64,000 bases of DNA from Alphaproteobacteria bacterium (GCA_009691025.1 SHWB01000002.1:8300-72299); one strand, 5' to 3'. Counted from the first letter of the stretch, positions 10,114 through 51,330 are shown. A program made the numbers and translations. Notes: a model not told the origin generated them from the letters alone.

Positions 10114-10481
10114 ATGGAGGTTTTCGTGGCCCGCGCTGCCGATCTTGCCTAGGGCGGCCGGGGCGTGATCGCCGCCGAGGGGGTCGAAATCGGTGTTTTC
10201 CGCGTCGTAGGAGAATTGTTTGCCTGGCATAACGAATGTCCCCATCAGGGCGGCCCGGTCTGCCAGGGCCGGCTTATGAAAGGCGTCGAGGAGAGACTCG
10301 ACGCGGATCGCCGCAGCCTCGGCATCCACTACGCCGAGGGCCGCCTCAACCTCGCCTGCCCGTGGCACGGCTGGGAATTCGACCTGCGCAGCGGCCGCCA
10401 TGCCGGCCTCGCCTCGGGCGCCTCGCAGGCGTGGCCGTGCGCGAGCGCGACGGAGGCATCTATGTCGACGCCGGACGCTGA
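10114..10481 (+). pseudogene. Rieske [2Fe-2S] ferredoxin gene with an in-frame TAG and a frameshift
   Basis: ATG 10114 follows GGGGAGG. MEVFVARAADLA is followed by TAG (10150-10152), then GGRGVIAAEG..CPHQGGPV..CPWHGWEFDLRSG (Rieske CxH/CxxH motifs). The family-typical end ..VAVRERDGGIYVD is in another frame (frame 0), so a 1-nt indel lies near 10395-10420. Confidence 0.7.
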
Positions 10482-10703
10482 CGCCGCCCGCCTCGCGGCG
10501 GCGGCCGGCGAGGCGCTGGCGGCCGCCTGTTCGACCGCAAGGCGGAAGCGGAAAGGCGCTACTTTCCGCCCCTGACCGGCCACGACGCGGCGACGGCGAC
10601 CGATGTGGCCGTGCTGGCGACCGAAATGCTGCGGGCCGTGAACCTCAACCTGTTCGACCTGTCTATGTGGGCCGATCGCCCGCGCGGCGGCGTCGACGAC
10701 TGA
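10462..10703 (+). pseudogene. Small hypothetical ORF, apparently frameshifted
   Basis: The ATG overlaps the Rieske 3' end. MSTPDADAARLAAAAGEALAAA (frame 1) continues plausibly as LFDRKAEAERRYFPPLTGHDAATATDVAVLATEMLRAVNLNLFDLSMWADRP (frame 0). No family recognised. Confidence 0.25.
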
Positions 10704-10718
10704 CGCGGGAGCGCCGCG

Positions 10719-11951
10719 ATGGCGACCGACCGCAGGCCCGTCCACCTCGCCGAGATCGGCGAGCGCAGCGACTCCGCCGATTTCCTCGCGCACGCCCGGC
10801 GCTAGGCGGTCGAGCGGGATTTCGCGTCGCGCTTCATCGTCGATGTCGACTCGCATATAGGCGACGGCGGCGCCTGGCCGGAGGTGCTGAAATACATCGA
10901 TAACGACGCCGTGCGCGTCGCCGCCTTCACCTTCGGCGACGGCACCGGCCGCGGCGCCTTCCTCAACGACACGCCGGGCCTGCAATGGCAGAACGCCTGG
11001 GGGCGTATCTCGCATGCGCAGGGCCTGAAAGAGCCGGTGACGGACAATTCCGCGCCGCGCGAGGTCATCCTGTCGCGCAAGTTGATGGACGACGTCGGCC
11101 TCGACTACCAGGTGTTCTTCCCCAACGCGCTATTGTTCCTCGGCATGCACCAGGTGAGCGAAATGGAGGTCGAACTGGCGACGGCCTACAACCGCTGGCT
11201 CGTCAAGCAGGTGCTGCCGCACGAGACGCTCATGAAGGCGCTGCTCTATCTGCCGTTCAACACGTCGGCTGCGGCGTAGAAGACGGTGGAGCGCTTCCTC
11301 GGCGCGCCCGGCGTGGTCGGCTTTCTCGTCACCAGCACGCGCTATCAGACGGTTCACGACAACGAGTACATGCGTCTCTACGCGATGCTGGAGGAAGCGC
11401 GGATGCCGATCGGCTTCCACGCCCATCACAACTGGCACAACGAGTATACGCGCCAGCTCAACCGCTTCATCTCGATGCACGAGCTGTCCTTCGTGCTGTC
11501 GAACATGGTCCATATGACCAACTGGATCATCAACGGCCTGCCCGAACGCTTCCCGAAGCTGAAACTCATGTGGATCGAGAGCGGGCTCGCCTGGCTGGTG
11601 TTCCTGATGCAGCGCCTCGACAACGAGTATTTGATGTGCTCCTCCGAGGCGCCGCTGCTCAAATGCCTGCCGAGCGACTACATGCGCGAGATGTACTACA
11701 CGATGCAGCCGCTGGAGACGTCAAACCTCAAGCTGCTGGAAGAGACCTTAGAGGCCATCGCCGCGCCGACTCAGCCCCTCTACGCTTCCGACTGGCCGCA
11801 CTGGGATTTCGACGTTCCGGCCCGTCTCTACGACCTGCCGTTCCTCGACGAGAAGGTGCGCGCCGACATCCTCAGCTACAACGCCGCCCGCCTGTTCGCC
11901 ATCGACGTTCCGGCGCGCTACCGCCAGCCCGACCGCGACGCGGCGGAATAG
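10719..11951 (+). pseudogene. Amidohydrolase-2 (ACMSD/metal-dependent hydrolase-like) gene with two in-frame TAG codons
   Basis: One continuous frame runs from ATG 10719 to TAG 11949-11951, interrupted by TAG at 10803-10805 and 11277-11279. The ORF-track pieces 10884..11279 and 11286..11951 are in the same frame. Motifs ..FIVDVDSHI.., ..GFHAHH.. and ..YASDWPHWDFD.. are present. Confidence 0.75.
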
Positions 11952-12020
11952 GGCGCCGTTGCACCATCCCCCGCGGCCCTGCTAAGGGGCACGGCCCTTC
12001 CGGCGCGAGACCGTCCCGGC

Positions 12021-12602
12021 ATGCTGCAATCCCTGTACCTGTGGACCATGCGCGTCGGCGCCTCGCGCCATTCCGTGTGGGTGCTGCTGCTGGCGGCGTT
12101 CGCCGAAAGCTCGATTTTCCCCGTGCCGGTCGACGTGCTGCTGTTCCCGATGGTGCTGGCGGCGCGCGAGAAGGCCTGGCGGCTGGCGGCGCTGGCCACG
12201 CTGGCCTCGGTCGCCGGCGGCTTCGCCGGCTATGCCATCGGCTGGGGCCTCTACGAATCGGTCGGCCGCTGGATCGTCGAGCTGTACGGGCTGGGCGACA
12301 AGTTCGCGTATTTCGAGGAGCAGTACGAGGAATGGGGCGCCTGGGTGGTGATGCTGTTCGGCATCTCGCCGCTACCCTACAAATTCGTCACCATCGCCTC
12401 GGGCGTGTTCACCCTCGATCTGTGGGTGTTCGGCCTCGCCTCGCTGGCGGCGCGCGGCATCAGGTTCTTCGCCGTCTGTGCGCTGCTGTGGCTGTTCGGT
12501 CCGGCCATCCGCCGCATCTTCGAGCGCTGGATGTGGCCGGTGACGATCATCTTCCTCGCCCTGCTCGTCGGCGGCTTCGTCGCGGCGGCCCATGCCTTGT
12601 AG
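12021..12602 (+). CDS. YqaA/DedA-type membrane protein
   Basis: 193 aa. ..LLLAAFAESSIFPVPVDVLL.. together with multiple TM helices is typical of the YqaA (SNARE-associated/DedA-like) family. Confidence 0.8.
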   Translation: MLQSLYLWTMRVGASRHSVWVLLLAAFAESSIFPVPVDVLLFPMVLAAREKAWRLAALATLASVAGGFAGYAIGWGLYESVGRWIVELYGLGDKFAYFEEQYEEWGAWVVMLFGISPLPYKFVTIASGVFTLDLWVFGLASLAARGIRFFAVCALLWLFGPAIRRIFERWMWPVTIIFLALLVGGFVAAAHAL

Positions 12603-14362: not shown

Positions 14363-14410
14363 CACCAACGGCTGTATCCTGACCGTTCCAGCGTCCCCGT
14401 CATATTCGAT

Positions 14411-14538
14411 CGTCGTCCCGGGCGGAGCGCAGAGCGCGCAGACCCGGGACCCATGAACACCGGACGGTGCAGGGCTTTGCGTGGCCCGTGTTCATGGCCC
14501 CCGGCTCGCGCTGCTGCGCCGCTTGGCCGGGGCGACAC
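14411..14538 (+). repeat. Repeat family A, copy 1 (about 125-bp MITE/REP-like palindromic element)
   Basis: gtcgtcccgggcg..agacccggga..atgaacaccgg..cccgtgttcat..ccccggc..gccggggcgac. Terminal inverted repeats plus a central hairpin. Other copies at 33885-34009, 48826-48947 and 55663-55790. Confidence 0.8.
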
Positions 14539-14641: not shown

Positions 14642-15451
14642 TTAATTGAGGACGATCCGCACGCGGCGGTTCTGCGGCTCGCGTACGCCGTCATCCGTCG
14701 GCACCAGCGGCTCGGCCCGCTGGCGCGACAGGTTGAGATTTTAAGCGTCCGGTCCCGAGCGGTCGGCGTGGCCGGTGGCGACGACGGTGACGCTTTCGAT
14801 CTGGCCGACATTGCGCGCCGCGGTGACGATTACCGAGCGCGCGCCCTCGGTCAGCTTCGCACTGTTCCAGTCGAAGAAGACGAGAAAGGCGCGTACCGGG
14901 CTCGTCGCCGGCGCCGGGGCGGCGGCGCGCGGCGCCGGTTCATCCGGGCGCAGGGCGGTGTCGAGTTCAGTCATCGCCGCCTTGAAATCGCGCCGGCAGG
15001 CGGCGATGTCGTTGAACTGGAAATTCTCTTCCTGCTCCTGCAGCCAGCAATCGAATGCGACTTGCGCGCGTGCTGCCTCGGACGTCGCCCGGCTGCGGCC
15101 ATCGGGCAGCGCCGTCATCAGCCGCGCGCGCGCCGCTTCGATGCTCGCCGCGGTGTCGGCCGGCATCGGCGGCCAGGAGGATTGCGGCGGCAGGCGCTCG
15201 GCCACCGGCTGCGGATCGATCGTCTCGCCGTTTCCGGCGCGCCGCGCCAGCAGGGCGAAATGATCGGAATTCTTGTAGTCTCCCTCGGAGCACTCGTTGC
15301 GGTCGAGGCGCATGTAGCCGCCGTGGAGTCCATGGGTATAGGCCGTGCCGCCGGCGGCGGCGGTCGGCGTGCGTTCGAGCTGCTGGCCGGCTCAGGCGGC
15401 GAGCGTGCTCGCGCAGAGGCCAGCGATCGCGATGTTTGTGAAGATTTTCAT
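14642..15451 (-). pseudogene. OmpA-family lipoprotein paralog 1, inactivated (TGA, TAA, internal deletion)
   Basis: From ATG 15451, MKIFTNIAIAGLCASTLAA is followed by TGA (15392-15394) where the lipobox Cys is expected (paralog 2 has LAFAGCAGQ). ..GHADRSGPDA is followed by TAA (14741-14743) where paralog 2 has Tyr. The frame then continues NLNLSRQRAE-PLVPTDDGVREPQNRRVRIVLN, lacking about 25 codons present in paralog 2. Confidence 0.75.
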
Positions 15452-15735
15452 GGCAGACCTCGCTGGCCGTCGCGCCCGACGGCGCGACCGCATCGGGAGA
15501 TGCCCGTCAGGGCCGGGTGAAGGTGCCGATTTCGCACGCGCGAAAGGCGGTCATGCGGCCTAAACGTGGCGGTCCGGCGACCGGCCCCCTTTTTTCGCAT
15601 TGCCGCTTGTGAAGATTGCGGCCCTGCGCCGTGTCCTGCATCGGTGCCGCCAAAGCAATGACGCCGGCCTCTTGCGAGGCCGGCGCCTTGTCGTTCGCCC
15701 GGCGGCGCCAGGCGCCGCCGGGGGGCTGTTCGCGA

Positions 15736-16617
15736 TCAGTTCAGGACGATCTGCACGGCGCGATTCTGCGGCTCGCGCACATCGTTGCCGGTGGCCACCA
15801 GCGGATCGGTTTAGCCGCGCGCGGCGACGCCGATCTCGCGGGTCGGGATGCCGAGGCGCATCAGTTCCGCCTTCACCTCATCGGCACTATGGCCCGACAG
15901 GCCGAGGTTATAGTCGTCGGAACCCGAGCGATCGGCGTGCCCGGTGGCGGTCATGGTCACCTGGCTGGACTGGCGGGAGGCGCTTGCGGCGATGGCGATG
16001 ACCGATTTCGCGCCATCCGTCAGGACATTGCTGTCCCAGTCGAAGAAGACCAGGAAGGTGCGCTCGGCCGGCGTCGTCATGGTCGGTACGGCGGCACGCG
16101 GCGCGACCGCGGGACGCAGCGCTGTGTCGAGTTCGGCCATCGCCGTGTCGTAGGAGTCGCGGCAGGCGGCGATGTGCGCGGGCTGGAAATTCTCCTCCTG
16201 CTTGCCGAGCCAGCAATCGAAGCCGACCTGGGCCCGCGCCGCGGCGGCGGGAGCGATGGTGCGGCCCTCGGGCATCGCCGTCATCAGCCGGCAACGCGCG
16301 CCGGTCAGCTAGGACACTATTTCGGGCGACAGCTCCGTCCATGCCGAATTATCTAGGCGGTCGCTGACCAGCTGTGGGTCGAAGCTTTCGTCGCGCCCGG
16401 CGCGCTGCGCCCGCAACGCTAAGAAGTCGGAGTCCTTATAGTCGCCTTGGGTATACTCGCTCTTGGCGATGCCAAGATATCCGGTGTGGAGGCCCGTCGT
16501 GAACGTATTGGCGTTCGATGGGGCGGCAGCGGTGTAGCCGACTTCCTGGCCGGCGCAACCGGCAAAGGCAAGGGCGCACAGGTTGGCGACGGAGATGGAT
16601 GTGTAGGTTCTGGTCAT
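15736..16617 (-). pseudogene. OmpA-family lipoprotein paralog 2, inactivated (TAG and TAA)
   Basis: One frame from ATG 16617 (MTRTYTSISVANLCALAFAGCAGQ, lipobox) to TGA 15736-15738. It is interrupted by TAG 16309-16311 and TAA 15811-15813 (..GVAARG*TDPLVATGNDVREPQNRAVQIVLN). ORF-track pieces 16309..16677 and 15811..16284 share the frame. Confidence 0.75.
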
Positions 16618-16836
16618 GCGAATTTTCCCCGCTGGATAGGAATGTCTGATGTCTCTACAGGCAGGGTCACAAAACACGCCAAATGATAGAATGGACTCGC
16701 TAGGCGCATTTGGCGTAGAAAATTCCGTCCTGGCACAATATATTTCATAGAATTTCTGCGGCTAATCTAGGTCAGACATAACGAGATTTATTGATCTTCC
16801 GAGAAAATCTTAGGGGAACGTCGTGAATCCAGTTTT

Positions 16837-17574
16837 TCATATATGGGGTATCGCGAGATTCAAGTAGACATTGGCGTAGACGGACAGTTCCCGCAGGCCG
16901 TCCAGATCGTGGATTATGACCTAGTGGTCCTTGACCGTGATCAACTCCCGCTCGCGCAACTGGCGCAGGACACGGTTGGCGTGGATAGCGGTGAGGCCGA
17001 GCGCCTCGGCGAGGACATACTGGTTGAGCGGACAGGCAAAACTGGTCGACGAGACGAGGTCGACCATCTTCAGGCGCTGTCCGATCTCGATGAACAGGTG
17101 GGCCAGCCGCTCGATGGCGGTACGCCGGCCGATATTCACCAGATGCTCGACCACCATGGCTTCGTCGCGCGAGACCGCCCACAGGATGGCGGTCGCCAGC
17201 CGCGGGAAGCGGTGGAACAGCTCGATCATCCGCGGCGGCGAGACTTCGCTGACGACGGCGTCGGTCATGCATGCGAAGGAATGATCGGAGGTGCGCAGCA
17301 AGACACTGCGCAGACCCATGAAATTGCCCGGCAGCGGAAAACCGATGATCTGGCGGCCGCCGTTCGGAACCATCTTGTAGGAGATGGCCCACCCGGTCTG
17401 CAGGATGAAGGCGTGATGACCGGTCTGGCCTTCATGCACGAGGTCGGTGAGGGCGGAAACGGCTCGGCGGCGCGATTGCATCTCGTCGAGGCAGGCCAGT
17501 TCTTCGGGCCCCAGCGGCAGGAAGCCGGTGAGCTTCTTCGCGAGCGGCGATTCGGTGCGCGAAGTTGGCGGCAC
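16837..17574 (-). pseudogene. Crp/Fnr-family transcriptional regulator with an in-frame TAG 27 codons before the family-typical C-terminus
   Basis: The ORF track ends at TAG 16921-16923 (..LRQLRERELITVKDH*). The same frame continues VIIHDLDGLRELSVYANVYLNLAIPHI to TGA 16837-16839. That tail matches the usual Crp/Fnr ending (..I.I.D...L..LA.....YL). cNMP-binding and HTH regions are intact. Confidence 0.65.
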
Positions 17575-18191
17575 TACGGCATCATGGGAAGCGCTGCGGC
17601 GGCGCCGGCCTGTTGGACGGCACGCCGGAGACAGTCGAAGGAAGTGCGGAACCGGAGGCGTGACAGTGACGTCGCTCGATCATGGACGACTGCGGGAGAC
17701 TATCACACATTAGCATCGTCCCGGCGGCGTCCGTGTAACCTCGCGTACTCGGTCGCCCCGCGCCCGACACACCGCCCGACACACCGTCGCGCGGGGACAG
17801 CAGCTCAGCACGGGATGCAAATGAACACCGACCTGCCGCCGCCGGCCTCGCCGCACTGCCGATTTGCGAGTCGCTGTTGTTGTCCCTGTCGGACAACGAG
17901 CTTCTCGACAATGCGGAGGTCGTATCCATCCTCGCCGACGCAGCTATCGCGCACCGGGGGCCATGGCCAGCGCCATCGATCCGAAGAAACACGGGGCCGC
18001 CGCCGAGATGATAGACCGCATCATCAAGGGCAAGAATTCGGTGGGGCACGACTGAGCGATGCGAACTCGCGCAAGCGGGGCGCGGAGCCTGTCTTGCTCC
18101 ACGCCCCGCGTCAGCGCAGTCGCGCGTCCAGTCGTCCGGAACGCTCGGCCGACGGAAGCCCTCCGACGAAGGCGGAGGCGTCCGCCGCGCG

Positions 18192-18506
18192 CTACTTGAC
18201 CACGAGGTCGTTGCGCACCTGCGACACGCCGGTGACGCCCGAGGCGACGGTGCCGGCGCGGGTCTTCGCCTCGGCGGTGTTCACGAAGCCGCTCAACGGG
18301 ACGATGCCCTTGTAGGTCGCGATATCGATCTGGAAGAGGTTGATATCCTTGTCTCCGATGAGCTGGGCGCGGACCTTGTTGCTGATGACGGAATCGTCGA
18401 TGTATTCGCCAGTGCTCTGGCTGGTCCGCGATCTGGTGCAGGCCGTCGTGGCACCCGCGAGCAGGGCGACGACGACAAGGGCGCGCGCGAAACGGGGCGT
18501 GTTCAT
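18192..18506 (-). CDS. BON-domain lipoprotein (OsmY-like)
   Basis: Signal peptide plus lipobox LLAGATTAC. ..DDSVISNKVRAQL..D..I....I.I.TYKG.V.LSGFV....AK..A...A..V.GV..V.N.L.V is a BON domain. Confidence 0.8.
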   Translation of the reverse strand: MNTPRFARALVVVALLAGATTACTRSRTSQSTGEYIDDSVISNKVRAQLIGDKDINLFQIDIATYKGIVPLSGFVNTAEAKTRAGTVASGVTGVSQVRNDLVVK

Positions 18507-18590
18507 GGGTTGTATGCCTCCAGGGCGGAATTCGGGTAAGTCGGACGCGGGCGCGGCGTTGCGCCCGCGCGATCGGCGGCTCGCGACCGG

Positions 18591-18782
18591 CTAGCGGCCG
18601 ACGCGGATGGTGTCCATCGCGCCGAGCACGCCGAAGGCCTGCAGCAGCCAGAGTACGACGGCGATCACCACGACGACGTTCAGGATGAATTTGATCTTCC
18701 GGTCCATCGGAATGTAGGTATTGACCGCCCATAACAAAACGCCGACGACGATCAGAACAATAACCAGATTGATAATTGACAT
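18591..18782 (-). CDS. Small two-TM membrane protein (Thivi_2564-like family)
   Basis: I start it at ATG 18782. MSIINLVIVLIVVGVLLWAVNTYIPMDRKIKFILNVVVVIAVVLWLLQAFG. Confidence 0.6.
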   Translation of the reverse strand: MSIINLVIVLIVVGVLLWAVNTYIPMDRKIKFILNVVVVIAVVLWLLQAFGVLGAMDTIRVGR

Positions 18783-18992
18783 GCCTTGATCATCGAATAC
18801 TATGCGTCGCGGCGCAGAGCCATGCTGCCGCAAGTTATTCCAATGCGCAGAACGAGGACTAATCTAAATCCGTACGTTCACGAAATTTCCGGGCCTTGGC
18901 CGGTTGCGCACGACGCCGGTGCGATCGCCGACGCCGTACGCGAACGGGGCGCGCCGTGGCGCAGAAGCGCCATGCATCCGCTCCCGGAAGGG

Positions 18993-19580
18993 TCAGCCTT
19001 CCAGTTCGACGTCCCAGTACAGGTAGTCGTTCCAGCTCTGGTGCAGGTAATTGGGTGGGAAGGCGCGGCCGTTATCCTGCAATTCCCAATTGGTCGGCAC
19101 GCGCGGCCGGCGGCGCAGGCGCAGGCCGCCCTCCTGCGGCGTGCGGCTGCCCTTCTGCATGTTGTGGATGCTGCAGGCGGTGACGACATTATCCCACGTC
19201 GTGCGCCCGCCGCGCGAACGCGGCACGACATGGTCGAAGGTCAGGTCGTTGGCGGCGAACCGGTGGTCGCAGTACTGGCAGGAGAAGCGGTCGCGCAGGA
19301 ACACGTTGAACCGTGTGAAGGCCGGGCGCGCGGCCGGGCGGACATATTCCTTGAGCGAGATGACCGAAGGCAGCGCGATGCGCGTCGTCGGCGATCTAAC
19401 CACGCGGTCGTAGACGGCCACGGTGTTGACCCGGCCGAGCAGCGCGGCCTTGACCGCTTCGTGCCACGGCCACACCGACAAGGGAAAGTAACTGAGCGGC
19501 CGGAAATCGGCGTTCAGGACCAGTGCCGGATATTCACGCAGTCCGACGTGCACAACACGCTGCTCCCGCAACAGGACCAA
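18993..19580 (-). CDS. HNH endonuclease family protein
   Basis: 195 aa. ..CQYCDHRF....LTFDHVVPRSRGGRTTWDNVVTAC..HN..K is the HNH motif. Confidence 0.8.
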   Translation of the reverse strand: MVLLREQRVVHVGLREYPALVLNADFRPLSYFPLSVWPWHEAVKAALLGRVNTVAVYDRVVRSPTTRIALPSVISLKEYVRPAARPAFTRFNVFLRDRFSCQYCDHRFAANDLTFDHVVPRSRGGRTTWDNVVTACSIHNMQKGSRTPQEGGLRLRRRPRVPTNWELQDNGRAFPPNYLHQSWNDYLYWDVELEG

Positions 19581-19698
19581 CCCGATACGCGCCGGAGCCT
19601 AGAAGATGATGTGCGCCAGCGCAAAGAACTTCCTTTTTGGTACAGCATGTTGTAACCCATTGGTCACGGCCTGCCACCGCAGCAAAACGTGCGACGCG

Positions 19699-34060: not shown

Positions 34061-34422
34061 TCAGTGCACCGCCTGCCGCGCCAGCACGTCGTCGACCGCG
34101 GCGCAGATCTGGCGCAGCGTGAAGGGCTTGGCGACGACACGGTGGATCAAATCGTCGAGGTTGTGCGCGCGCTGCCGCTCGGCGGCATAGCCGGTCATCA
34201 GCAGGATCGCCATGTCAGGCCGCTCGCGCGCGGCCTTCAGGGCCAGGGCTATGCCGCCCATGCCGGGCATGACGATGTTGGTGACCAGCAGGTCGAAGGG
34301 TCGCTTTCCCAGCGTATCGAGCGCGTCGATGACGGTAGCACCTCGTGGCCGCGATGCGCCAGCGCACGGCGCACGAATTCGCGCACCGCTGCGTCGTCCT
34401 CGGCTACCAGCACGCGTGCCAT
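34061..34422 (-). pseudogene. cpdR: Single-domain response regulator CpdR, carrying a 1-nt frameshift
   Basis: ATG 34422: MARVLVAEDDAAVREFVRRALAHRGHEV, then the frame is lost. The rest, ..TVIDALDTLGKRPFDLLVTNIVMPGMGGIALALKA..PDMAILLMTGYAA.., is in the -1-shifted ORF 34061..34462. The 362-nt span is one nt short of 121 codons, and GAGGTG-CTACC suggests a missing G near 34338-34341. Confidence 0.7.
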
Positions 34423-38470: not shown

Positions 38471-40880
38471 ATGGCCCGGCAGGAGGCAGGTCTGGCACAG
38501 CTCGTCCCCATCGCCCATCGTATCTGGGACATGAAGTACCGGCTGCGCGACGCCGCCGGGGCGCCCGGTCGACGGCTCTGTCGCCGATACCTGGCGGCGC
38601 GTCGCCCGCGCGCTCGCCGCCGCCGAACTCGACCCGGCCGCGTGGGAAGCGCCGTTCTACGCCGCGCTCGACGGCTTCGGCTTCATCCCGGCCGGCCGCA
38701 TCCTCGTCGGCGCCGGCACCGGCCGCGACGTCACCCTGTTCAACTGCTTCGTCATGGGCACGATCCCGGACGACATGGGCGGCATCTTCGCCCATCTGCG
38801 CGAGGCGGCGCTGACGCTGCAGCAGGGCGGCGGCATCGGCTACGATTTCTCGACGCTGCGGCCGCGCGGCTCGCTGGTGAAGGGCGTCGGCGCCGACGCC
38901 TCGGGCCCGCTGTCCTTCATGGACGTCTGGGACGCGATGTGCCGCACTGTGATGAGCGCCGGCTATCGCCGCGGCGCGATGATGGCGACGCTCGCCTGCG
39001 ACCATCCCGACATCGAGGCCTTCATCGACGCCAAGCGCACGCCCGGGCGCCTAACCATGTTCAACCTGTCGGTTCTAGTCACATACGCCTTCATGGCGGC
39101 GGTCTAGGCCGATGCGCCGTGGGATATGGTGTTTGGTGGCACGGTGGCGAAGACGCTACGCGCGCACGAACTATGGGACCGCATCATGGCGGCGACATAC
39201 GCCAATGCCGAGCCCGGCGTCGTCTTCATCGACCGCATCAATGCCGAGAACAATCTCGGCTGGCTTGAGACGATCCGCGCCACCAACCCCTGCGGCGAGC
39301 AACCGCTGCCGCCCTACGGCGCCTGCCTGCTCGGCTAGCTCGATCTCGCGCGGCTCGTCGAGGCGCCGTTCACCGCCGACGCGCACATTCCCGGCGCGGC
39401 CTTCGCCCGCCTAGTGCCGGTGGCCGTGCGCATGCTCGACAACGCCATCGACGTCTCGCGCTTCCCGCTGCCGGCGCAGCGCGCCGAGGCGCTGGCCAAG
39501 CGCCGCATCGGCCTCGGCGTCACCGGCCTAGCCGACGCTTTGGCGCTGTGCGGTGCCCGCTATGGGGCGCGCGAGGCGGTGGTGCTGACCGAATGCTAGC
39601 TCGCCGCCATCGCGCGGCACGCCTACCTCGCCTCGGCCGCGCTTGCCGCCGAGAAGGGCCCGGTCCAGCTCTACGACAGCGCACGCTTCCTCGCCGCGCC
39701 CTTCGTGCGGCGTCTGCCGCAGGAGGTGCGCGACGCCATCGCGCGCCATGGCATCCGCAACGGCCTGCTCACCTCGATCGCGCCGACCAGCACGATCTCG
39801 CTGCTGGCCGGCAATCTGTCCTCGGGCATCGAGCCGATCTTCGCCCATGAGTACGAGCGCGCCGTGCTGATGCTCGATGGCGAACTCCGCCACGAGCGCG
39901 TCGAGGACTGGGCCGTGCGCCTGTGGCGCGAGACCAGTGGCGCCGACGCGCCGCTGCCGCCTGCCTTCGTCGACGCCCAGTCGCTGGCGCCGGGCGACCA
40001 TCTGGTGATGCAGGTGGCGGCGTAGAAATGGGTCGACAGCTCAATCTCCATGACCGTCAACGTGACGGAGACCATCGCTTTCGACGCCTTCAAGGACATC
40101 TACCTGCAGGCCTGGCGGCTCGGCTGCAAGGGCTGCACCACATACCTACCGAACGACGTCACCGGCTCGGTGCTGGCGACGACGCCCGCCGCGCAGCCGG
40201 AAGCCGCTCCGGCCGAGACGCCGCACAGGGGATTCGGCGACGTCTACGAGGCCGGCGGCGTGGTGTGGATGACGAAGCCGCTCGACCGGCCCGAGGCACT
40301 GCCCGGACGCACCTACAAGATCCGCTGGCCGGACAGCGACCACGCCATCTACATCACGCTGAACGACATCGTGCGCGACTGCCGCCGCGCACCCTTCGAG
40401 GTGTTCATCAATTCCAAGAACATGGAGCACTACGCCGGGACGGTGGCGCTGACGCGCATGATCTCGGCGATGTTCCGGCGCTGCGGCGACGTCTCCTTCG
40501 TGGCCGAGGAGATGAAGGCGGTGTTCGACCCGCGCGGCGGCCAGTGGCTGGAGGGCCGCTACGTGCCCTCTCTGCTCGCCGCCATCGGCGAGGTCATCGA
40601 ACGTCACATGATCGATATCGGTTTCCTTCCGGCGCGCGAGGCCGGCGCCGTGGGCCGCGCCGCGCATGCCGCGGCGGCCGCCGGTGGCAGCGGGACCGGC
40701 GGGGCCAAGCCTGCGCCCCTCACGGTGGCGGCGGCGGGACTTCGGCAATGCCCGCGCTGCGCCGCCGCCGGGCTGGTGCGGCAGGAAAACTGCGACGTCT
40801 GCCTAGATTGCCGGCACTCGAAATGCGCCTGCGCTATCGCGGCGGCAGGCCGGCCGCGTCTGATATACTGCCGGCCCTGA
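38471..40880 (+). pseudogene. nrdJ: Adenosylcobalamin-dependent (class II) ribonucleotide reductase, heavily disrupted
   Basis: The N-terminus (ATG 38471, ..PIAHRIWDMKYRL..) is in frame 2. From about 38568 the protein continues in frame 0 (VDGSVADTWRRVA..GRILVGAGTGRDVTLFNCFVMGTIPDDM..GGGIGYDFSTLRP..RRGAMMATL.CDHPDIE.FI.AK). In-frame TAG codons lie at 39105-39107, 39336-39338 (within [17 protein letters not shown]), 39597-39599 and 40023-40025. The five ORF-track pieces from 38754 to 40880 share one frame. The C-terminal CxxC..CxxC ribbon is retained. Confidence 0.85.
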
Positions 40881-40900
40881 TCGACGCACGGTGCGAGGGC

Positions 40901-41175: not shown

Positions 41176-41225
41176 CGCCTGATGGCGGCTACTCAGGGTG
41201 AGGAGGCTCAGGATGAGGACCCGGA
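41176..41225. repeat. Repeat family B fragment
   Basis: ctcagggtgaggaggctcaggatgagga is the reverse complement of the tcctca(c/t)cctgagcctcctca motif seen at 585-612. Lies in a convergent gap. Confidence 0.4.
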
Positions 41226-41240
41226 ACGATCCCGCAAACC

Positions 41241-44063: not shown

Positions 44064-44077
44064 GGGAGACCATCGCC

Positions 44078-44260
44078 ATGGACATCAATGTCATCCGCTC
44101 CGTATCGACGCTCGCGCCGGCGTCGCAGAGCGTCATTTCCGACAAGGCCCTGCCGGCCTCGGTCAAGCGGGAAGAGGTGGAGGGGGTGAAGCGACTGACG
44201 CCGGACGCCGCGCCGCCGTCGGACGGGCAGCGCGGCACCTTCGTCGACATCGCCGCATGA
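44078..44260 (+). CDS. Hypothetical small protein
   Basis: MDINVIRSVSTLAPASQSVISDKALPASVKREEVEGVKRLTPDAAPPSDGQRGTFVDIAA. No family recognised. Coding status uncertain. Confidence 0.3.
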   Translation: MDINVIRSVSTLAPASQSVISDKALPASVKREEVEGVKRLTPDAAPPSDGQRGTFVDIAA

Positions 44261-44263
44261 TTT

Positions 44264-44309
44264 TCCCTCTCCGCCCCCGGGGGAGGAGAGGGGTGGGGTG
44301 AAGTGGGTG
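44264..44309. repeat. Repeat family C, right-half copy
   Basis: tccctctccgcccccgggggaggagaggggtggggtgaagtgggtg aligns with 29859-29905. Confidence 0.55.
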
Positions 44310-44616
44310 TAGCGCGGCACATGAATTGGGAGTCTCTGCCACTTGAAGAGGGATCACACGGTTTCTCCTCCATGGGCGGCAGTGTAGGCTGCTCTCGCAA
44401 GGTGGTGGAACCATTCACGGCAACCGCCGCTGCCCGTCTGGCGCCGGCACCCTGAGGGCCAGCGTCGGCCAGGCCGGTCCTGGTCGCGGTCCCCGGCTTC
44501 ATCTCCCCGATCGGCCGGGGACCGCAACGGCCTCGGGAAGGGCCGTAACGATCGAAGATAACCCACATGGTGGAGGCTCCGGCGGCGCGGCTGGTTTCAG
44601 CGAATTGGTCGGTAGC

Positions 44617-44668
44617 GCCCCCACCTCACCCTCACCCTACCCTCTCCGCCCTCAAGGGCGGAGAGGGT
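44617..44668. repeat. Repeat family C, left-half copy
   Basis: gcccccacctcaccctcaccctaccctctccgccctcaagggcggagagggt aligns with 29792-29836. Confidence 0.55.
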
Positions 44669-44754
44669 TCCCGGCCGCGCCCTCCTGTTGACCCGGAGCG
44701 CCGCCGCCCATAGGGTCCGCCCCGCGTTCTTTTCGAAGGCTGGAACGGACACTC

Positions 44755-46344
44755 ATGGCGGCGGCGCGCGACCTGGCGATGGCGGCGAAGGCATGGCCGT
44801 TCGAGGAGGCAAGGAAGCTACTCGAACGCATCGGTGGCAGCGCGCCGGCCAGGGGCCATGTGCTGTTCGAGACGGGCTACGGCCCCTCGGGCCTGCCGCA
44901 TATTGGCACCTTCGGCGAGGTCGCGCGCACGACGATGGTGCGCCGCGCCTTTGCCGAACTGTCGGATGTGCCGACCCGCCTCCTCGCCTTCTCAGACGAC
45001 ATGGACGGGCTGCGCAAGGTGCCCGACAACGTGCCGAACCGCGAGATGCTGGCCGGCCATCTCGGCAGGCCGCTGACCGCGGTGCCCGATCCGTTCGGCA
45101 CGCATGACAGCTTCGGCGCCCACAACAACGCCCGCCTGTGCGCCTTCCTCGACCGCTTCGGCTTCGCCTACGAATTCGCCAGCGCCACCGAGTATTATCG
45201 CGCCGGCCGCTTCGACGCGACGCTGCTGCGCCTGCTCGAACGCTACGACGAGACGATCGCCGTCATCCTGCCGACCCTGGGGCCCGAGCGGCGCGAGACC
45301 TATTCGCCCTTCCTGCCGGTCTGCCCGACCACCGGGATCGTCCTGCAGGTGCCGCTCGTCGAGCGCCGTCCGCAGAGCGGAACGATCGTCTACCGCGACC
45401 CGCGCTCCGGCGCGCTGGTCGAGGTGCCGGTGACGGGCGGGCATTGCAAGCTGCAATGGAAGGCCGACTGGGCGATGCGCTGGGTAGCCCTCGACGTCGA
45501 CTACGAGATGTCGGGCAAGGACCTGATCGATTCGGTGCGCCTGTCGTCGCGCATCTGCCGCATCCTCGGCGGTACGCCGCCCGAGGGTTTCACCTACGAG
45601 CTGTTCCTCGACCAGAACGGCGAGAAGATCTCGAAGTCGCGGGGCAACGGCCTGACCATCGACGAATGTCTGGGATACGGCCCGGCCGAGAGCCTCGGCT
45701 GGTTCATGTACGGCAAGCCGAAGGCGGCCAAGCGCCTGCATTTCGACGTCATCCCGCGCAATGTCGACGAATGGCTGGGCGGCCTCGCGCGCTTCGCCGG
45801 CGAGGATGCGGCGGCGCAACTCGAGAATCCCGCCTGGCATGTGCATGCCGGCAATCCGCCGGCGGCCGAGGCCGGGCCGTCCTTCGGCGTGCTGCTCAAC
45901 CTCGCCTCGGTGTGCAACACGGAGGATGCGGCGGTGCTGTGGGCGTTCGTCGCCCGCTACATGCCCGACGCCTCGCCGGCGACGCATCCGATCCTCGACG
46001 CCCTCGTAGGCCATGCCATCGCCTGCTACCGAGATCTCGTGAAGCCGGCCAAGCGCTACCGCGCGCCGACGCCGGCCGAGCGCGCGGCGCTGGCCGATAT
46101 CGCCGACAGCATCGCCGCCATGCCGCAGGGCACCGACGGCGAGGCGGTGCAGACCGAAGTCTACGCAATCGGCAAGGCGCACGGATTCGAGCCGCTGCGC
46201 GACTGGTTCCGCTGCCTCTACGAGGTGCTGCTGGGGCAGAGCGAGGGGCCGCGCTTCGGCTCCTTCGCGGCGATATACGGTATCGCCGAGACCGTGACCC
46301 TGATCCGCCGCGCGCTCGCTGGCGAAGATCTGTCGGCGTCCTGA
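44755..46344 (+). CDS. lysK: Lysine--tRNA ligase, class I
   Basis: 529 aa. ..[10 protein letters not shown]........[26 protein letters not shown] and KISKSRGNG (KMSKS-like). This is the class I LysRS typical of alphaproteobacteria. Confidence 0.92.
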
Positions 46345-46349
46345 GGGAG

Positions 46350-47249
46350 ATGGCGATGGCCAGCACGATGCGCAGCGCCGCAACGCGGACCCGCGGCAAG
46401 CCGGCGGCGGTGGAGCGTGGCGTGCCCGTCCCGTTGGCGCCCGCCGCGCCGCTTCTGGTCCCGGCCGGGGATGAGGACGAGAGCCAGCCGAAATACGCCA
46501 ACCGCTCGGTCGACCGCGCGCTCGACATCCTCGTCTTCCTGCACGAGTACCGGATGCCGGCGCGCATCACCGACATCTGCAAGGGCACCGGCCTGTCGCC
46601 GGGCACGGCGCATCGCCTGCTGGCGGTGCTGGTCGCCCGTCGCTTCGCCTACAAGAACACGATCACGCGGCGTTACTCTCTGGGTTTCGAGACCTTCTAC
46701 ATCGGCGCCACCAGACGGGCGATGCGCATGACCAGCGGACGCGCGCACCCGTTGCTGGTGCAGCTCGCGCGCGATGTTGGCGCCTCTGTGTTCTTCGGCG
46801 CGCTGGCCGGCAGCCAGGTGGTGCTGCTAGACCGCGTGCTCGGCTGCGAGGAGACGGGTCGCGTGGCGGCCCGCATCGGCACCTATGTCGACGCGCACGC
46901 CACCGCCATCGGCAAGGTGCTGCTGGCGTGGCAGCGCGAAAGCGAGACGCGCGAGGTGTTCCGCGAGCGCGGGCTCGAGGCGCACACGCTCAGGACCATC
47001 ACCACCGTGCCGACACTGATCGCCGATCTGCGCCGCATCCGGGCGCGGGGCTGGGCCCTCGACGACGGCGAGTTCCGTCCCGGCATGTTCGGCATCGCCG
47101 TGCCGATGGTCAGCATGCGCGAGGAGGTCAACCTCGCCATCTGGATGGTCTATGCCGGCGGGGTCGCCGACGAGGCCGAGATCGTTGACCGCGTGCGCCG
47201 CGCGGAAGCCGTCGCCAGGGCCATCTCGGACTACCGCCCGGTGGCCTGA
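46350..47249 (+). CDS. IclR-family transcriptional regulator
   Basis: ..SVDRALDIL.FL........I.DI...TGLS.GTAHRLL..L....F with a C-terminal IclR effector domain (..GW.LDDGE...G...IAVP..). Confidence 0.85.
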   Translation: MAMASTMRSAATRTRGKPAAVERGVPVPLAPAAPLLVPAGDEDESQPKYANRSVDRALDILVFLHEYRMPARITDICKGTGLSPGTAHRLLAVLVARRFAYKNTITRRYSLGFETFYIGATRRAMRMTSGRAHPLLVQLARDVGASVFFGALAGSQVVLLDRVLGCEETGRVAARIGTYVDAHATAIGKVLLAWQRESETREVFRERGLEAHTLRTITTVPTLIADLRRIRARGWALDDGEFRPGMFGIAVPMVSMREEVNLAIWMVYAGGVADEAEIVDRVRRAEAVARAISDYRPVA

Positions 47250-47380
47250 GGCGTTTCGCTTTTTCCGTACCTCAAAAAATCTCGCGGTACCGGCGTTGCC
47301 GCCGCCAGCCGGCGGACGCTAGTGTCCCGCATACAACAAGGCTAGGGCAGGACGCCCGCCGACGCGAGAAGAGGAACGTC

Positions 47381-48616
47381 ATGGCGCTGCCAAAGATCAT
47401 CGTCCAGCTCTACCCGGTGATGCCGGCCGAGAACGAGGCCGACCGCATGGCCAAGCGCCCGCTCGGCGCCAATGTCGAGCTGTACCAGCGCGTCGTCCAC
47501 GAATGGACCGACATCATCAAGGAATGCGACAAGATGGGCGTGTGGGGCGCCTCGACGATCGAGCACCATTTGCATTCCGAGGGCTACGAGGTCGGGCCGA
47601 ACCCGGGCGTACTAAACGCCTACTGGGCCAACCACCTCACCAACATGCGCGTCGGCGCGCTCGGCTACGTGATGTCGACGCAGGATCCGATCCGCGTCGC
47701 CGAGGAGACGGCGATCGTCGACCATCTGACGAAGGGCAAGTACTTCGTCGGCTTCGCGCGCGGCTACCAGGCGCGCTGGACCAACATCCTCGGCCAGGCC
47801 TCCGGCGCCTCGGCCACCTCCTCCGATGGCGGCGATGCCGACCGCAAGAACCGCGAGGTGTTTGAGGAGCGGGTGCAGATGGTGCTCGACTGCTGGACCA
47901 AGGAAACGGTCGAGCTGCGCGGTACCTCCTACCAGGCGCCGTACCCGATCGAGACAGGCGTCGTCGGCTATCCCGGCACGGACATCGCGCGCAAGGCCGG
48001 CGGGCGCGGCGAGATCGACGACAACGACGCGGTGCGCCGCATATGCGTCGTGCCGAAGCCGCTGCAGTCGCCCTATCCGCCGGTCTTCGTCGGCGTGCAC
48101 AAGAGCCCGCCGACCATCGATTTCTGCGCCCGACACGGCTTCCGCCCGTGCTACTTCAACCCGAGCGACGTGGTCGTCGACCTAGCGAAGATGTATCTCG
48201 ATCTGTCGACTAAATACGGCCACAACTTCAAGTTAGGCGAGCGCCAGAACATCGTGCGCCAGACGCGCCTGGCGAAGAACCGCGCCGATCTCGAGAAGCG
48301 CGTGATGAAGTACGACATCGACATCTTTAAGAATTTCTACAGCGTCTTCGCCAACCACAGCGTCGCCCGCGCCGATCCCAGCGACGCCGAGGCCTTCAAG
48401 GCGATGGATGGCACCAGCTTCCTCGCCGGCGGCACGGTGGACGAGGCGATCGCCTATTACCGCGCGATCTTCGCCAAGTGCCCCTTCGAGTACATCACGC
48501 TGATCTGGCATTTCGCCCAGCAGCCGAAGGACAGCGTGCTCGAGGAGATTCGCCTGTTCATGGAAAAGGTGCGCCCGGAACTCGAAGTGCCCGAGTTTGC
48601 GGTGGCCGCCGAGTAG
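47381..48616 (+). CDS. LLM-class (luciferase-like) flavin-dependent oxidoreductase
   Basis: 411 aa. ..IVQLYPVMPA.NE.DR...RP.G.N...Y......W......CD..G.WG.ST.EHH.HSEGYEV.PNPG... The function is assigned by family resemblance only. Confidence 0.75.
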   Translation: MALPKIIVQLYPVMPAENEADRMAKRPLGANVELYQRVVHEWTDIIKECDKMGVWGASTIEHHLHSEGYEVGPNPGVLNAYWANHLTNMRVGALGYVMSTQDPIRVAEETAIVDHLTKGKYFVGFARGYQARWTNILGQASGASATSSDGGDADRKNREVFEERVQMVLDCWTKETVELRGTSYQAPYPIETGVVGYPGTDIARKAGGRGEIDDNDAVRRICVVPKPLQSPYPPVFVGVHKSPPTIDFCARHGFRPCYFNPSDVVVDLAKMYLDLSTKYGHNFKLGERQNIVRQTRLAKNRADLEKRVMKYDIDIFKNFYSVFANHSVARADPSDAEAFKAMDGTSFLAGGTVDEAIAYYRAIFAKCPFEYITLIWHFAQQPKDSVLEEIRLFMEKVRPELEVPEFAVAAE

Positions 48617-48647
48617 GTTCCCGCCCAGGCAGGGCAGGATAGCGGCT

Positions 48648-48682
48648 GGCGGCGCATGATGTGCCGCCCGCCGTCTTCTTTT
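48648..48682 (+). terminator. Candidate rho-independent terminator after the LLM oxidoreductase gene
   Basis: GGCGGCGCA-tga-TGTGCCGCC stem followed by CGCCGTCTTCTTTT. Confidence 0.4.
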
Positions 48683-48825
48683 GCGTGACGCCGCTCGGTT
48701 CACCTGCTCCACCCCCCCCTTCGAGACGCCGCCTTGCGGCGGCTCCACAGGCTGGCCGGAAATGAATGTGGTGATTTCAACGCTCCGATCCCGACGGAAG
48801 AGCTTTCTGACCGCTCGATGGAAGT

Positions 48826-48947
48826 GTCGCCACGGCCAAGCGGCGAGAGCCGCGCGAGCCGGGGCCCATGAACACGGGCCACGCAAAGCCTTGCACCGTC
48901 CGGTGTTCATAGGTCCCGGGTCTACGCTGCGCTTCGCCCGGGACGAC
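48826..48947 (-). repeat. Repeat family A, copy 3 (inverted orientation)
   Basis: The reverse complement aligns along its full length with 14411-14538. Lies in a convergent gap. Confidence 0.8.
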
Positions 48948-49021
48948 TATCGAGCATGAAGCCACCGAAGCAACCTTTCGGCAGCACACCGATTTCCAAC
49001 GAATTCATTTCCGACCGGCCT

Positions 49022-49048
49022 CTCAGGGTGAGGGGGCGGAGAGGGTGG
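49022..49048. repeat. Repeat family C fragment
   Basis: ctcagggtgagggggcggagagggtgg. Confidence 0.35.
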
Positions 49049-49079
49049 ATTGCCGAAGGCTGCCGGATGCGGGCCGCCG

Positions 49080-49891
49080 CTACCGCCGGATGTGCGCGAA
49101 GTCCCAGTAGAGTTCGCGCACCCGGCGGTAGACCGGGCCGGGCTGCAGGTCGCGGTCCTCGCAGCGGATGACCGGATGCACCTTGCCGAAATTGCCGGTG
49201 TTGAAGATTTCGTCGGCACGGCGCAACTCGTCGGGATGCACCGGGCGTTCCTCGACGGCGATGCCATCGGCGCGCAGCAGGACGGCGACGCTCTGGCGCG
49301 TGATGCCGTTGAGGAAGGTGCCGTTGGGCGAGGGCGTGATCGCCACACCGTCCTTCACCAGACAGACATTGGCGGTGGCGAATTTGGCGACCGTGCCCAT
49401 CGGATCGAGCATGACGCAATTGTTGAAGCCGAGATCGACCGCGTCGCGCAGCGCGCGCGCCGATTGCGGGTAGAGGCAGGCGGTCTTGGCCTCGGTCGGC
49501 GCGGTGTCGGGCGTGGGCCGGCGCCACGGCGACATGCAGGCGGTGAAGCCCGTGCCCTGCGGCATCGGCGATTCGACGAAGACCATGGCGAAGCGCGTGG
49601 TCTCCGGATCGGGCAGGATCATCGGCAGGCCCTGTTCGCAGAAGAACAGCGGCCGGATGTAGAGGGCGGTGCCGGAGGGGAAGCGCGCCGCGCCGTCGCG
49701 CGCGATCTCCCCGATCTCGCCGTCCGACAGCATCGGCCGAGGCCGAGCGTCTGGGCCGAGCGCACGACACGCGCGCAATGGCGGTCGAGGTCGAGGGCGA
49801 CCGAGCCCATCCACGACGAGTGCGACAGCGAGCCGATCAACGGCACGTTGCCCTTGCGCCACTAGCCGTCGACCCGGATCAGTGCAGCCAT
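49080..49891 (-). pseudogene. Class IV (branched-chain/D-amino-acid type) aminotransferase with an in-frame TAG and a frameshift
   Basis: ATG 49891: MAALIRVDG then TAG (49862-49864), then WRKGNVPLIGSLSHSSWMGSVALDLDRHCARVVRSAQTLGLG (ORF 49619..49846). The rest, ..PMLSDGEIGEIARDG...GTALYIRPLFF...NGITRQSV...ADEIFNTGNFGKV.PV.., is in the frame of ORF 49080..49940. The switch is near 49729-49748. Confidence 0.75.
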
Positions 49892-50030
49892 CGCCGGAGC
49901 GCCGTCGCCACCGGGGTCTCGCGCCCCTCCCGTCGAGCATAGCCTCGCCCTCGCGCGGGCGTCACGCGTTGCGGGCTGGGCGCCGGCCGCAATTGCCGGG
50001 CGCCGCGCGCCGGCCCATATTGCCGCCATC

Positions 50031-50600
50031 ATGCCCATCCTAAAGATCGCCCGCATGGGACACCCGATCCTACGCCGCATCGCCGAGCCGGTCGCCGATC
50101 CGACCGACCAGGCCGTGCGCCGGCTGGCGGAGGCCATGATCGAGACGATGATCGACGCCGACGGTGCCGGCCTCGCCGCGCCGCAGGTGCACATGCCGTG
50201 GCGCATGGTCGTCGTGCAGGTGCCGGCCGAGCGGCTGGCGCGCGAGGGCGAAACGGACGAGGCCGGCGTGCCGCCGACGGTGATGATAAATCCGCTGATC
50301 GAGCCGCTGGGGCCGGAGAAGGAGACGGCCTTCGAGGCCTGCCTGTCGGTGCCCGGCCTCGCCGGCCCGGTGCCGCGCTTCCGCCGCATACACTACCGTT
50401 ACCAGACGCTCTGCGGCGCGACGGTGGAGCGCGTCGTCGAGGGCTTCCATGCGCGCGTCATCCAGCACGAATGCGACCATCTCGACGGCATCCTCTATCC
50501 CATGCGCGTCGAGGATTTCTCGCAGTTCGGCTTCGTCGAGGAGCTGCGCCGCGCCGGCTCGGCGCAGGGCGACGAGGACGGCGAGGATGACGAGGACTAG
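50031..50600 (+). CDS. def: Peptide deformylase
   Basis: GAGLAAPQV, EACLSVPG (a variant of EGCLS) and HECDHLDG motifs, with an unusual acidic tail ..GDEDGEDDED. After the TAG stop the frame stays open and remains acidic for 16 more codons (see findings). Confidence 0.88.
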   Translation: MPILKIARMGHPILRRIAEPVADPTDQAVRRLAEAMIETMIDADGAGLAAPQVHMPWRMVVVQVPAERLAREGETDEAGVPPTVMINPLIEPLGPEKETAFEACLSVPGLAGPVPRFRRIHYRYQTLCGATVERVVEGFHARVIQHECDHLDGILYPMRVEDFSQFGFVEELRRAGSAQGDEDGEDDED

Positions 50601-50601
50601 G

Positions 50602-51330
50602 ATGGCGAAGACTGGGAGGAGCTGGCGCAGGAGGCAGGCGTCCGTGACTGAGCGCTACCCGCAGGCGGCGGCCGCGGCGCGCCTAGCCGGCGCGCGCCGG
50701 ACCATCCTCGCCGCTTCGCTGGCGCATGTGCCCTTCGACGGCTGGAGCGCGGCGGCGTTGCGTCACGGCGCGCGCGATGCCGGCATCGACCGGGTGACGC
50801 TGGCCCGCGCCTTCCCGCGCGGCTCCGGCGAGGCGCTGGCGCAATGGAGCGCCGACGGCGATGCCGCCATGGCGGCGGCGATCGAGACGGCGCGCGCGGG
50901 CGGCGGCGGCACGACCGCGCGCATCCGCGCCGCGCTCGGGGCACGCATCGACTGGCTGGCGCCGCAAAGCGAGGCGCTGCGTCGCGCGCTGGCGTATCTC
51001 GCGCTGCCCGGCCACGGCGCGCTGGCCGCCCGCCTGCTGGCCCACACCGTCGACGAGATCTGGTGGCAAGCGGGCGACCGGTCGAGCGATTTTTCCTGGT
51101 ACACTAGGCGCGCGACGCTCGCCGCCGTCTGGTTGGCCACGCTGCTGGTCCTCGCCGGCGACCGCAGCGAGGGCCGCGCCGTCACGCGCGCCTTCCTCGC
51201 CCGCCGCCTCGCCGATGTCGGGCGCATCCAGAAGCTGCGCGCCCGCCTCGGCGGCCTCGCCGGCGCCGCCCGCCCGGCCGCGCGGCTGGCGCGGACCCTC
51301 GCCGTCTTCGCCCGCCGCCGCGCGGCGTAG
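50602..51330 (+). CDS. COQ9-family (RpsU-divergently-transcribed-like) protein
   Basis: ..R..IL.A.L.HVPFDGWS..AL..GA...G and ..R.......R.RI.....P......AL..LA.P.......L...VD.IW..AGD.S.DF.WYT.R..L. The start is ATG 50602 or GTG 50644. Confidence 0.7.
   Translation: MAKTGRSWRRRQASVTERYPQAAAAARLAGARRTILAASLAHVPFDGWSAAALRHGARDAGIDRVTLARAFPRGSGEALAQWSADGDAAMAAAIETARAGGGGTTARIRAALGARIDWLAPQSEALRRALAYLALPGHGALAARLLAHTVDEIWWQAGDRSSDFSWYTRRATLAAVWLATLLVLAGDRSEGRAVTRAFLARRLADVGRIQKLRARLGGLAGAARPAARLARTLAVFARRRAA

Follow-up and report, generated by a model that had tools for sequence, protein, structure and literature searches.

Bacterial pseudogenes accumulate after ecological shifts or bottlenecks, as noted by the authors of Pseudofinder (PMC9336565), and closely comparable cases are the niche-shift pseudogenes of Salmonella Typhi, Yersinia pestis, Shigella, Sodalis and Mycobacterium leprae. 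Many internal-stop "pseudogenes" in public assemblies stem from assembler, platform and coverage effects (Cooley and Wright, PMC11017572). In addition, unrepaired 8-oxoguanine leads to G:C>T:A transversions, which are normally prevented by MutY/MUTYH and MutM (PMC5478212, PMC2865507). In this study, a stretch of 64,000 nucleotides from an uncultured alphaproteobacterium (GCA_009691025.1, SHWB01000002.1:8300-72299; the whole stretch is called the window) is described, in which ten of ~71 genes carry stop codons, frameshifts or deletions. These genes are very probably genuine, recently formed pseudogenes: nine have apparently lost their function and one, the peptide deformylase gene (def), its tail, in modules that had presumably become dispensable and on a branch where the supply of stop codons was raised by G:C>T:A transversions. 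All claims on density and pseudogenes refer to this single 64-kb window.

The window shares several properties with the niche-shift pseudogenes (PMC9336565), including genes that each carry several lesions (nonsense, frameshift and deletion) while relatives keep intact orthologues, the decay of whole operons or modules, constraint that is relaxed only in the broken genes, and the expansion of a small repeat element. It differs in that the organism is uncultured and known only from metagenomes, that a 64-kb sample of its genome is considered, and that the retained genes show unweakened purifying selection and a G+C content at third codon positions (GC3) of ~0.9. Mutators deficient in the 8-oxoguanine repair (GO) system, that is, in mutY/mutM (E. 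coli, PMC2865507; MUTYH, PMC5478212), have the same G:C>T:A signature that is found here as a 3.2-fold excess, but the excess in the window is a long-term substitution pattern, with no measured mutation rate, and is accompanied by somewhat raised G:C>A:T and A:T>T:A changes. Assembly-error pseudogenes (PMC11017572) have in common with the window internal stops and single-base frameshifts in a public assembly, but the lesions described here recur in ENA gene calls, cluster by gene, include deletions of 10-79 nt and come together with signs of relaxed selection. Pseudogene accumulation, a neutral bias toward TAG and GO-type spectra are all already known; the window adds a further instance, from a lineage that is uncharacterised, of which the mutator-like spectrum and the unusual density (~13-14% of the window genes broken) are the most noteworthy parts.

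Lesions in ten genes and their intact orthologues

The related DNA consisted of four genome fragments besides the window, from three genomes. Pairwise identities place JGI 3300015615 (L163 and L164), with 88-91% nucleotide identity to the window, as the sister and GCA_050246875.1 (L001 and L081), with ~85%, as the outgroup; a further relative, L082, is from JGI 3300020214. Gene order is conserved across the regions fetched from these relatives (window 1.4-21.5 kb and 31-57 kb), and for 21.5-31 kb intactness was judged from ENA gene calls only. Two contigs of the ENA assembly ERZ1305449 lie over the window (inferred spans ~2156-35871 and ~39527-51268), and the window itself is part of a 151,868-nt contig from an NCBI metagenome-assembled genome (MAG), with the proteins MSO80271.1, MSO80308.1, MSO80310.1 and MSO80325.1. 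The nearest named genera have ~55% protein-level identity, and the records are labelled only "Alphaproteobacteria bacterium"; placement in the Hyphomicrobiales, as implied in an earlier note made from the sequence alone, is not established. A metagenome scan with the C-terminus of NrdJ recovered only relatives at <=65% identity, and no conspecific contigs were found. A look-up of window 59007-60215 gave no record, and the literature searched for the accessions contained nothing of relevance.

The GC content of the window is ~70%, and GC3 is ~0.9 in coding frames, so that the coding frame can be traced independently of stop codons. It was tracked with a six-frame Viterbi model of coding potential, which recovered the same lesions as the earlier note had listed. 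All 14 stop codons on that list were found in place, in a coding frame with GC3 ~0.9, and the four frame switches (Rieske, cpdR, nrdJ and aminotransferase) were located by alignment to intact orthologues. The decay itself was thus borne out, but the number of loci had been given as 8-9 and is ten genes, and lesions beyond the list were found: a gene of 105 codons has lost 79 nt, the aminotransferase gene 33 nt and nrdJ its stop codon. For cpdR, the net -1 frame switch was right but its size, given as 1 nt, was not, as 10 nt are deleted, and the gap of about 25 codons noted in the first OmpA lipoprotein gene corresponds to a 75-nt deletion. In total, 14 stops, 7 indels (5 that shift the frame and 2 in-frame deletions) and the one stop-loss were identified relative to the orthologues, all of them window-specific (Table 1).

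Full-length orthologues of all ten affected genes are present in L081/L001, L082 and/or L163/L164, and the comparison with orthologues that the earlier note had proposed as a check found the genes intact in every relative keeping them. Sister and outgroup agree against the window at every lesion for which sister sequence is available, which indicates that those lesions arose on the terminal branch of the window. The genes of the Rieske/amidohydrolase operon could be compared with L081 and L082 only, which for the Rieske and amidohydrolase genes agree against the window, and cpdR with L001 only; their lesions are unpolarised with respect to that branch.

Table 1. Affected genes and repeat copies in the window (positions counted from its first letter; pseudogene designations are probable; aa, amino acids)
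Feature	Position	Strand	Lesions	Relatives at the stop codons	Intact orthologues
Rieske [2Fe-2S] protein pseudogene	10114..10481	+	TAG 10150-10152; 1-nt deletion 10417	GAC/Asp in both relatives (GAC>TAG)	122-aa PF00355 protein in L081 and L082
105-codon gene pseudogene, no assigned function	10462..10703	+	79-nt frameshifting deletion ~10518		105 aa (L081), 104 aa (L082)
Amidohydrolase_2 (PF04909) pseudogene	10719..11951	+	TAG 10803; TAG 11277 (true stop TAG 11949)	10803, CAG/Gln; 11277, GAG/Glu	410/408 aa
OmpA-family lipoprotein 1 (OmpA1) pseudogene	14642..15451	-	TGA 15392; TAA 14741; 75-nt in-frame deletion 14715	15392, TGC (lipobox Cys); 14741, TAC/Tyr	294-295 aa in L081, L082 and L164
OmpA-family lipoprotein 2 (OmpA2) pseudogene	15736..16617	-	TAG 16309; TAA 15811	In L081: 16309, ACG/Thr; 15811, GAG/Glu	
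Crp/Fnr regulator	16837..17574	-	TAG 16921; 1-nt deletion 16847 in diverged tail	CAG/Gln	248 and 293 aa
cpdR-like single-domain response regulator pseudogene	34061..34422	-	10-nt deletion ~34330 (net -1 frame)		L001
nrdJ (class II, B12-dependent ribonucleotide reductase) pseudogene	38531..40880	+	+1 insertion 38564; TAG 39105, 39336, 39597 and 40023; stop-loss TGA>TGC 40830-40832	39105, GAG/Glu; 39336, TCG/Ser; 39597, TGG/Trp; 40023, CAG/Gln	L163 (764 aa) and L001
Class IV aminotransferase pseudogene	49080..49893	-	TAG 49862; 1-nt deletion 49738; 33-nt in-frame deletion 49790	GAG/Glu	L163 (281 aa)
Peptide deformylase (def), truncated	50031..50651	+	Derived premature TAG 50598	Sister and outgroup read 17 codons further, to TGA 50649-50651	
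MITE/REP-like repeat copies	14372-14536, 33885-34049, 48820-48959, 55662-55790				

Nine of these genes are considered to have lost their function, as judged from sequence: the Rieske, 105-codon and amidohydrolase genes of one operon, the two tandem OmpA lipoprotein genes with the adjacent Crp/Fnr gene, cpdR, nrdJ and the class IV aminotransferase gene. In the operon, the 105-codon gene sits between the other two, and 118 homologues of the amidohydrolase, of ~410 aa, are all intact. At 201 columns that are >=97% conserved, the amidohydrolase of the window has 14 private departures and its relatives have 0. In the sister (L164), the Rieske/105-aa/amidohydrolase/VTT block (window 10046-12596) is cleanly deleted, and in the outgroup it is intact; VTT is the one member of the block that is not pseudogenised in the window. 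The clean deletion independently demonstrates that this clade can do without the block. Its loss in window and sister is either a parallel loss or a loss that began in their common ancestor.

The two OmpA genes encode proteins of 295 and 293 aa in relatives, and the stop codon in the Crp/Fnr gene removes the final ~28 codons. In nrdJ, the stop-loss adds an extension of 16 codons. At 390 conserved columns, NrdJ of the window has 22 private departures, compared with 1 in L001, and these include catalytically conserved motifs (SKT>SMT and TYRPN>TYLPN). The helicase, an intact control, has private departures at 3 of 223 conserved columns (1 in L001). For def, only a possible loss of the tail had been suggested earlier, and sister and outgroup now establish that its TAG is derived and premature. 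The tail that is removed is a conserved acidic stretch of 17 residues with DW(D/E)ELAQEAG; the catalytic domain is intact, and def is for that reason probably still functional. Both def and possibly Crp may have retained their function, each being truncated only at the C-terminus.

Clustering, relaxed constraint and mutation spectrum

The disabling lesions are not scattered evenly. All 19 fall in 10 of the ~71 genes, and a uniform scatter would reach 16 genes on average (P=1.8e-4). The broken genes also form 5 adjacent pairs, with 1.3 expected (P=0.0018). Both tests support the earlier statement that the lesions are concentrated in particular genes. No stops occur inside the 61 other genes, with zero stops in ~16,000 intact-gene codons. 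Among the seven indels, four are 10-79 nt long and three are single-base. The ERZ1305449 gene calls contain identical truncated open reading frames for the amidohydrolase (131+221 aa), the OmpA lipoproteins (190 and 157 aa, the latter being OmpA2), Crp (217 aa), Response_reg (CpdR; 69 aa), NrdJ (106+276 aa) and the aminotransferase (217 aa), and Logan is tagged as a further source of the 221-aa and 217-aa fragments.

Constraint was compared between the terminal branches of window and sister as the ratio of nonsynonymous (N) to synonymous (S) changes. The ratio is 0.73 on the window branch and 0.18 on the sister branch for nrdJ and the aminotransferase gene together, and 0.83 and 0.31 for OmpA1, OmpA2 and Crp. 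For the broken genes of the nrdJ/aminotransferase region, 74 S and 55 N plus stop changes were counted in the window versus 52 and 10 in the sister (Fisher 3e-4), and for those of the second region 105 S and 86 N plus stop versus 54 and 17. The same trend is observed for single genes: the aminotransferase gene has 14 S, 20 N and 1 stop on the window branch (sister 9 S, 0 N), OmpA2 has 42 S, 45 N and 1 stop (sister 15 S, 4 N), and the ratio for Crp/Fnr is 0.55 (sister 0.20). For intact genes, 607 S and 252 N were counted in the window (N/S 0.42) and 474 S and 172 N in the sister (0.36), with regional values of 0.40 and 0.43 in the window and 0.36 in both regions in the sister. Constraint is thus relaxed in the broken genes, as seen both in N/S and in the excess of private changes at conserved columns. 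Judged roughly from N/S, the genes seem to have been inactivated at different times within the last ~15-55% of the terminal branch; such staggered times would indicate a continuing process and not a single burst.

Two candidate signals were rejected. An N/S raised in all window genes (0.55 versus 0.31-0.36) was obtained with the window as outgroup to L081/L082, and the intact genes proved normal once the sister L163/L164 was used. Also, the AT-ward asymmetry per gene does not separate broken from intact genes and is a property of the whole lineage.

In the region of the OmpA2 and Crp genes (window ~15700-19550), the terminal branch of the window is ~3 times that of the sister even at synonymous sites (for example, 40 S versus 15 in Crp and 21 versus 5 in HNH), and GC falls to 0.63-0.65. 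Recombination with a more distant relative may have brought in this tract.

The mutation spectrum was compared over window 1.4-20.7 kb and 34.5-54 kb against L163/L164. G:C>T:A changes make up 19.8% of the substitutions on the window branch and 8.8-10.2% in four related lineages, and they number 364 in the window, 3.2 times the 114 of the sister (chi-square P=2e-14). The shift is replicated in the two regions (23.3% and 16.7%). With G:C>C:G as an internal clock, the ratio of window to sister is 1.15, and the whole window branch is ~1.5 times as long as that of the sister. The G:C>T:A excess has no strand asymmetry and is present in most contexts, except 5'-A. In intact genes, the G:C>T:A changes comprise 92 S, 46 N and 0 stops, where the unfiltered expectation is 64% N and 5.9 stops (P=0.0024); they have been filtered by selection and are therefore real substitutions, not errors. 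In broken genes, they are near the unfiltered state, with 25 S, 28 N and 5 stops, and of the 8 polarised stops reached in a single step, 5 are G:C>T:A. The genes mutY, mutM and mutT lie outside the 64-kb window, and candidate causes of the shift are, among others, oxidative stress or a lost mutY or mutM.

Origin of the lesions

Multiple explanations other than pseudogenisation were considered. The stops could be recoded, with TAG read as an amino acid by a suppressor tRNA or a pyrrolysine-like system, programmed frame switches and functional genes; 11 of the 14 in-frame stops are TAG, and direct reading of the flanks places 9 of the 11 TAGs in a CTAG context. However, the in-frame TAGs correspond in relatives to six different residues (D, Q, E, T, S and W), and TAG terminates 17 of 50 presumed intact genes, whose ends match the gene calls of orthologues. 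Because of these two results, recoding is excluded on the sequence evidence, and it is given practically no weight. In addition, TGA and TAA stops, deletions of 10-79 nt and the stop-loss occur in the same genes, and the orthologues are collinear in one frame and lack the shift sites, the window indels of 1, 10 and 79 nt being private. Scans of the window for tRNAs and Rfam families found none, including any suppressor tRNA or riboswitch. With this codon usage, 67% of the one-step nonsense routes end in TAG, and the 10 of 13 observed fit this neutral expectation (P ~0.33), in agreement with the earlier remark that the TAG bias does not need recoding. It is very improbable that consensus errors in a poor-quality MAG account for the internal stops and frameshifts and that the genes are truly intact, an alternative for which the source, the three single-base indels and the precedent of spurious internal-stop pseudogenes (PMC11017572) would speak. 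The truncated reading frames recur in the ENA calls, two of them with a Logan tag, and the lesions gather by gene and by adjacency instead of scattering with length. Divergence from relatives is not elevated in the broken genes (nrdJ 0.110, with 0.192 and 0.144 in the flanking PlsC and helicase genes), which also have 14-22 private missense changes where the columns are conserved, and selection has filtered the substitutions of the intact genes. For the consensus indel errors raised as an alternative in the earlier note, the fact that cpdR and the aminotransferase gene give the same fragments in ENA and that most indels exceed one base is likewise unfavourable. Somewhat less improbable, but still doubtful, is a population chimera, in which co-existing strains carry different loss-of-function alleles, the loss being adaptive, and the assembler stitched them into one multiply-broken consensus. 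The nrdJ stops exceed the prediction from the missense load, and an ENA contig break inside nrdJ at ~39527 would fit strain heterogeneity, but the many private missense changes and deletions are as expected from prolonged neutral decay in a single lineage, and the fragments in the ENA calls match the window.

Classical reductive evolution would explain the window by an effective population kept small by host restriction or bottlenecks, with weak selection genome-wide, and with pseudogenes, mobile repeats and AT drift everywhere. The share of broken genes, the precedent of ecological shifts and bottlenecks (PMC9336565), a ~150-nt MITE-like repeat with 4 copies here and 0 in ~108 kb of orthologous DNA, the AT shift of nearly all window genes relative to relatives and the longer terminal branch all agree with it. 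It is nevertheless unlikely, as the N/S of intact genes is close to that of the sister in both regions, stops are absent from the 61 other genes, GC3 is still ~0.9, and the sister loses genes too, by clean deletion. The purifying selection on retained genes, equal to that of the sister, argues against the picture of a bottlenecked symbiont, and the "reductive evolution" that the earlier note had raised as a possibility is unsupported if weak selection across the genome is meant. The first alternative of that note, real pseudogenisation, is upheld by the intact orthologues, the lineage-specific lesions and the relaxed constraint in the broken genes. A more far-reaching version is a natural mutator lineage that has partly lost GO repair, in which a flood of G:C>T:A changes kills dispensable genes faster than deletion removes them while a MITE-like repeat spreads, as an early, still selection-efficient erosion of a free-living-type genome; the G:C>T:A excess over related lineages fits this version, which is possible but tentative.

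Read most simply, the window shows ordinary pseudogenisation, in modules that were dispensable and on a branch where stop-generating transversions were raised. Certain modules would have become dispensable, so that a first disabling mutation was tolerated, after which that gene or operon would gather further nonsense, missense and indel changes in a nearly neutral way, while neighbouring genes were kept under purifying selection as strong as that of the sister. Such neutral decay within dispensable modules would produce lesions grouped by gene and by operon. Stops would have arisen more often through the lineage-specific shift to G:C>T:A transversions, the signature of unrepaired 8-oxoguanine, which in GC3-rich codons would turn GAG, TCG, TAC and TGC into stops, mostly TAG. 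Some points weigh against this reading. The four stops in nrdJ compare with ~1 expected from the missense load (P ~0.006-0.09, depending on assumptions), and this excess could reflect the skewed spectrum, chance or a consensus of several loss-of-function alleles. The possible recombination tract at 15.7-19.5 kb could inflate the OmpA2 and Crp counts. The NCBI, ENA and Logan sequences may share one sequencing run, so that their agreement excludes artefacts of the assembler but would also be expected from systematic read errors. Finally, the density is estimated from one 64-kb window.

The outcome is mostly a clean negative, with pseudogenes only and neither a new genetic code nor programmed recoding. 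It is also a worked example of how dense internal stops in a MAG can be separated from assembly error without reads, using polarisation by sister and outgroup, tests of constraint and the agreement between independent sets of gene calls. If the G:C>T:A shift is genome-wide, it would represent a natural case in which genes of an environmental bacterium are inactivated through loss of GO repair or chronic oxidative damage. The lost set (a B12-dependent ribonucleotide reductase, CpdR, two OmpA lipoproteins with Crp/Fnr, and the Rieske/amidohydrolase genes) hints at a niche change in the clade.

Repeats, insertions and further candidates

The Viterbi model gave some extra lesion candidates, which were rejected. 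Those at 5524, 11949 and 18192 are, on translation, genuine ends of adjacent genes, and those at 18591 (BON/THIVI pair) and 20398 (AlkA/esterase) lie between separate intact neighbouring genes. The candidates at 55330, 23685 and 62326 and a 2-nt gap at 53030, upstream of kdsB, represent separate intact genes or intergenic indels. A possible gene of 80 codons at ~17815-18057 (+) is called in L081 and L164 and has no Pfam support; compared with L081, the window lacks single nucleotides of it at two separate sites. It may be one more pseudogene or no gene at all, and was excluded from the count of broken genes for this reason. Between the HNH and esterase genes, GCA_050246875.1 has an AhpC/TSA-Redoxin gene (L081 18903-19421) that is absent at the corresponding window gap (~19673-19693), in L082 and in L164, and is thus an insertion/deletion polymorphism within the clade.

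An intergenic repeat of 127-165 nt with an internal palindrome (CCCATGAACAC...GTGTTCATGG) is present in four copies, in both orientations, each copy being an insertion in the window relative to relatives. None was found in ~108 kb of orthologous DNA from the four related genome fragments, and the repeat looks like a lineage-specific expansion of an element resembling miniature inverted-repeat transposable elements (MITE) or repetitive extragenic palindromes (REP). A window-specific insertion of 360-400 nt (44279-44680) was observed upstream of the gene for class I lysyl-tRNA synthetase. It contains a second short repeat (CCTCACCC...GGGCGGAGAGGG), which occurs again at 29871-29925 (region 29809-29925).

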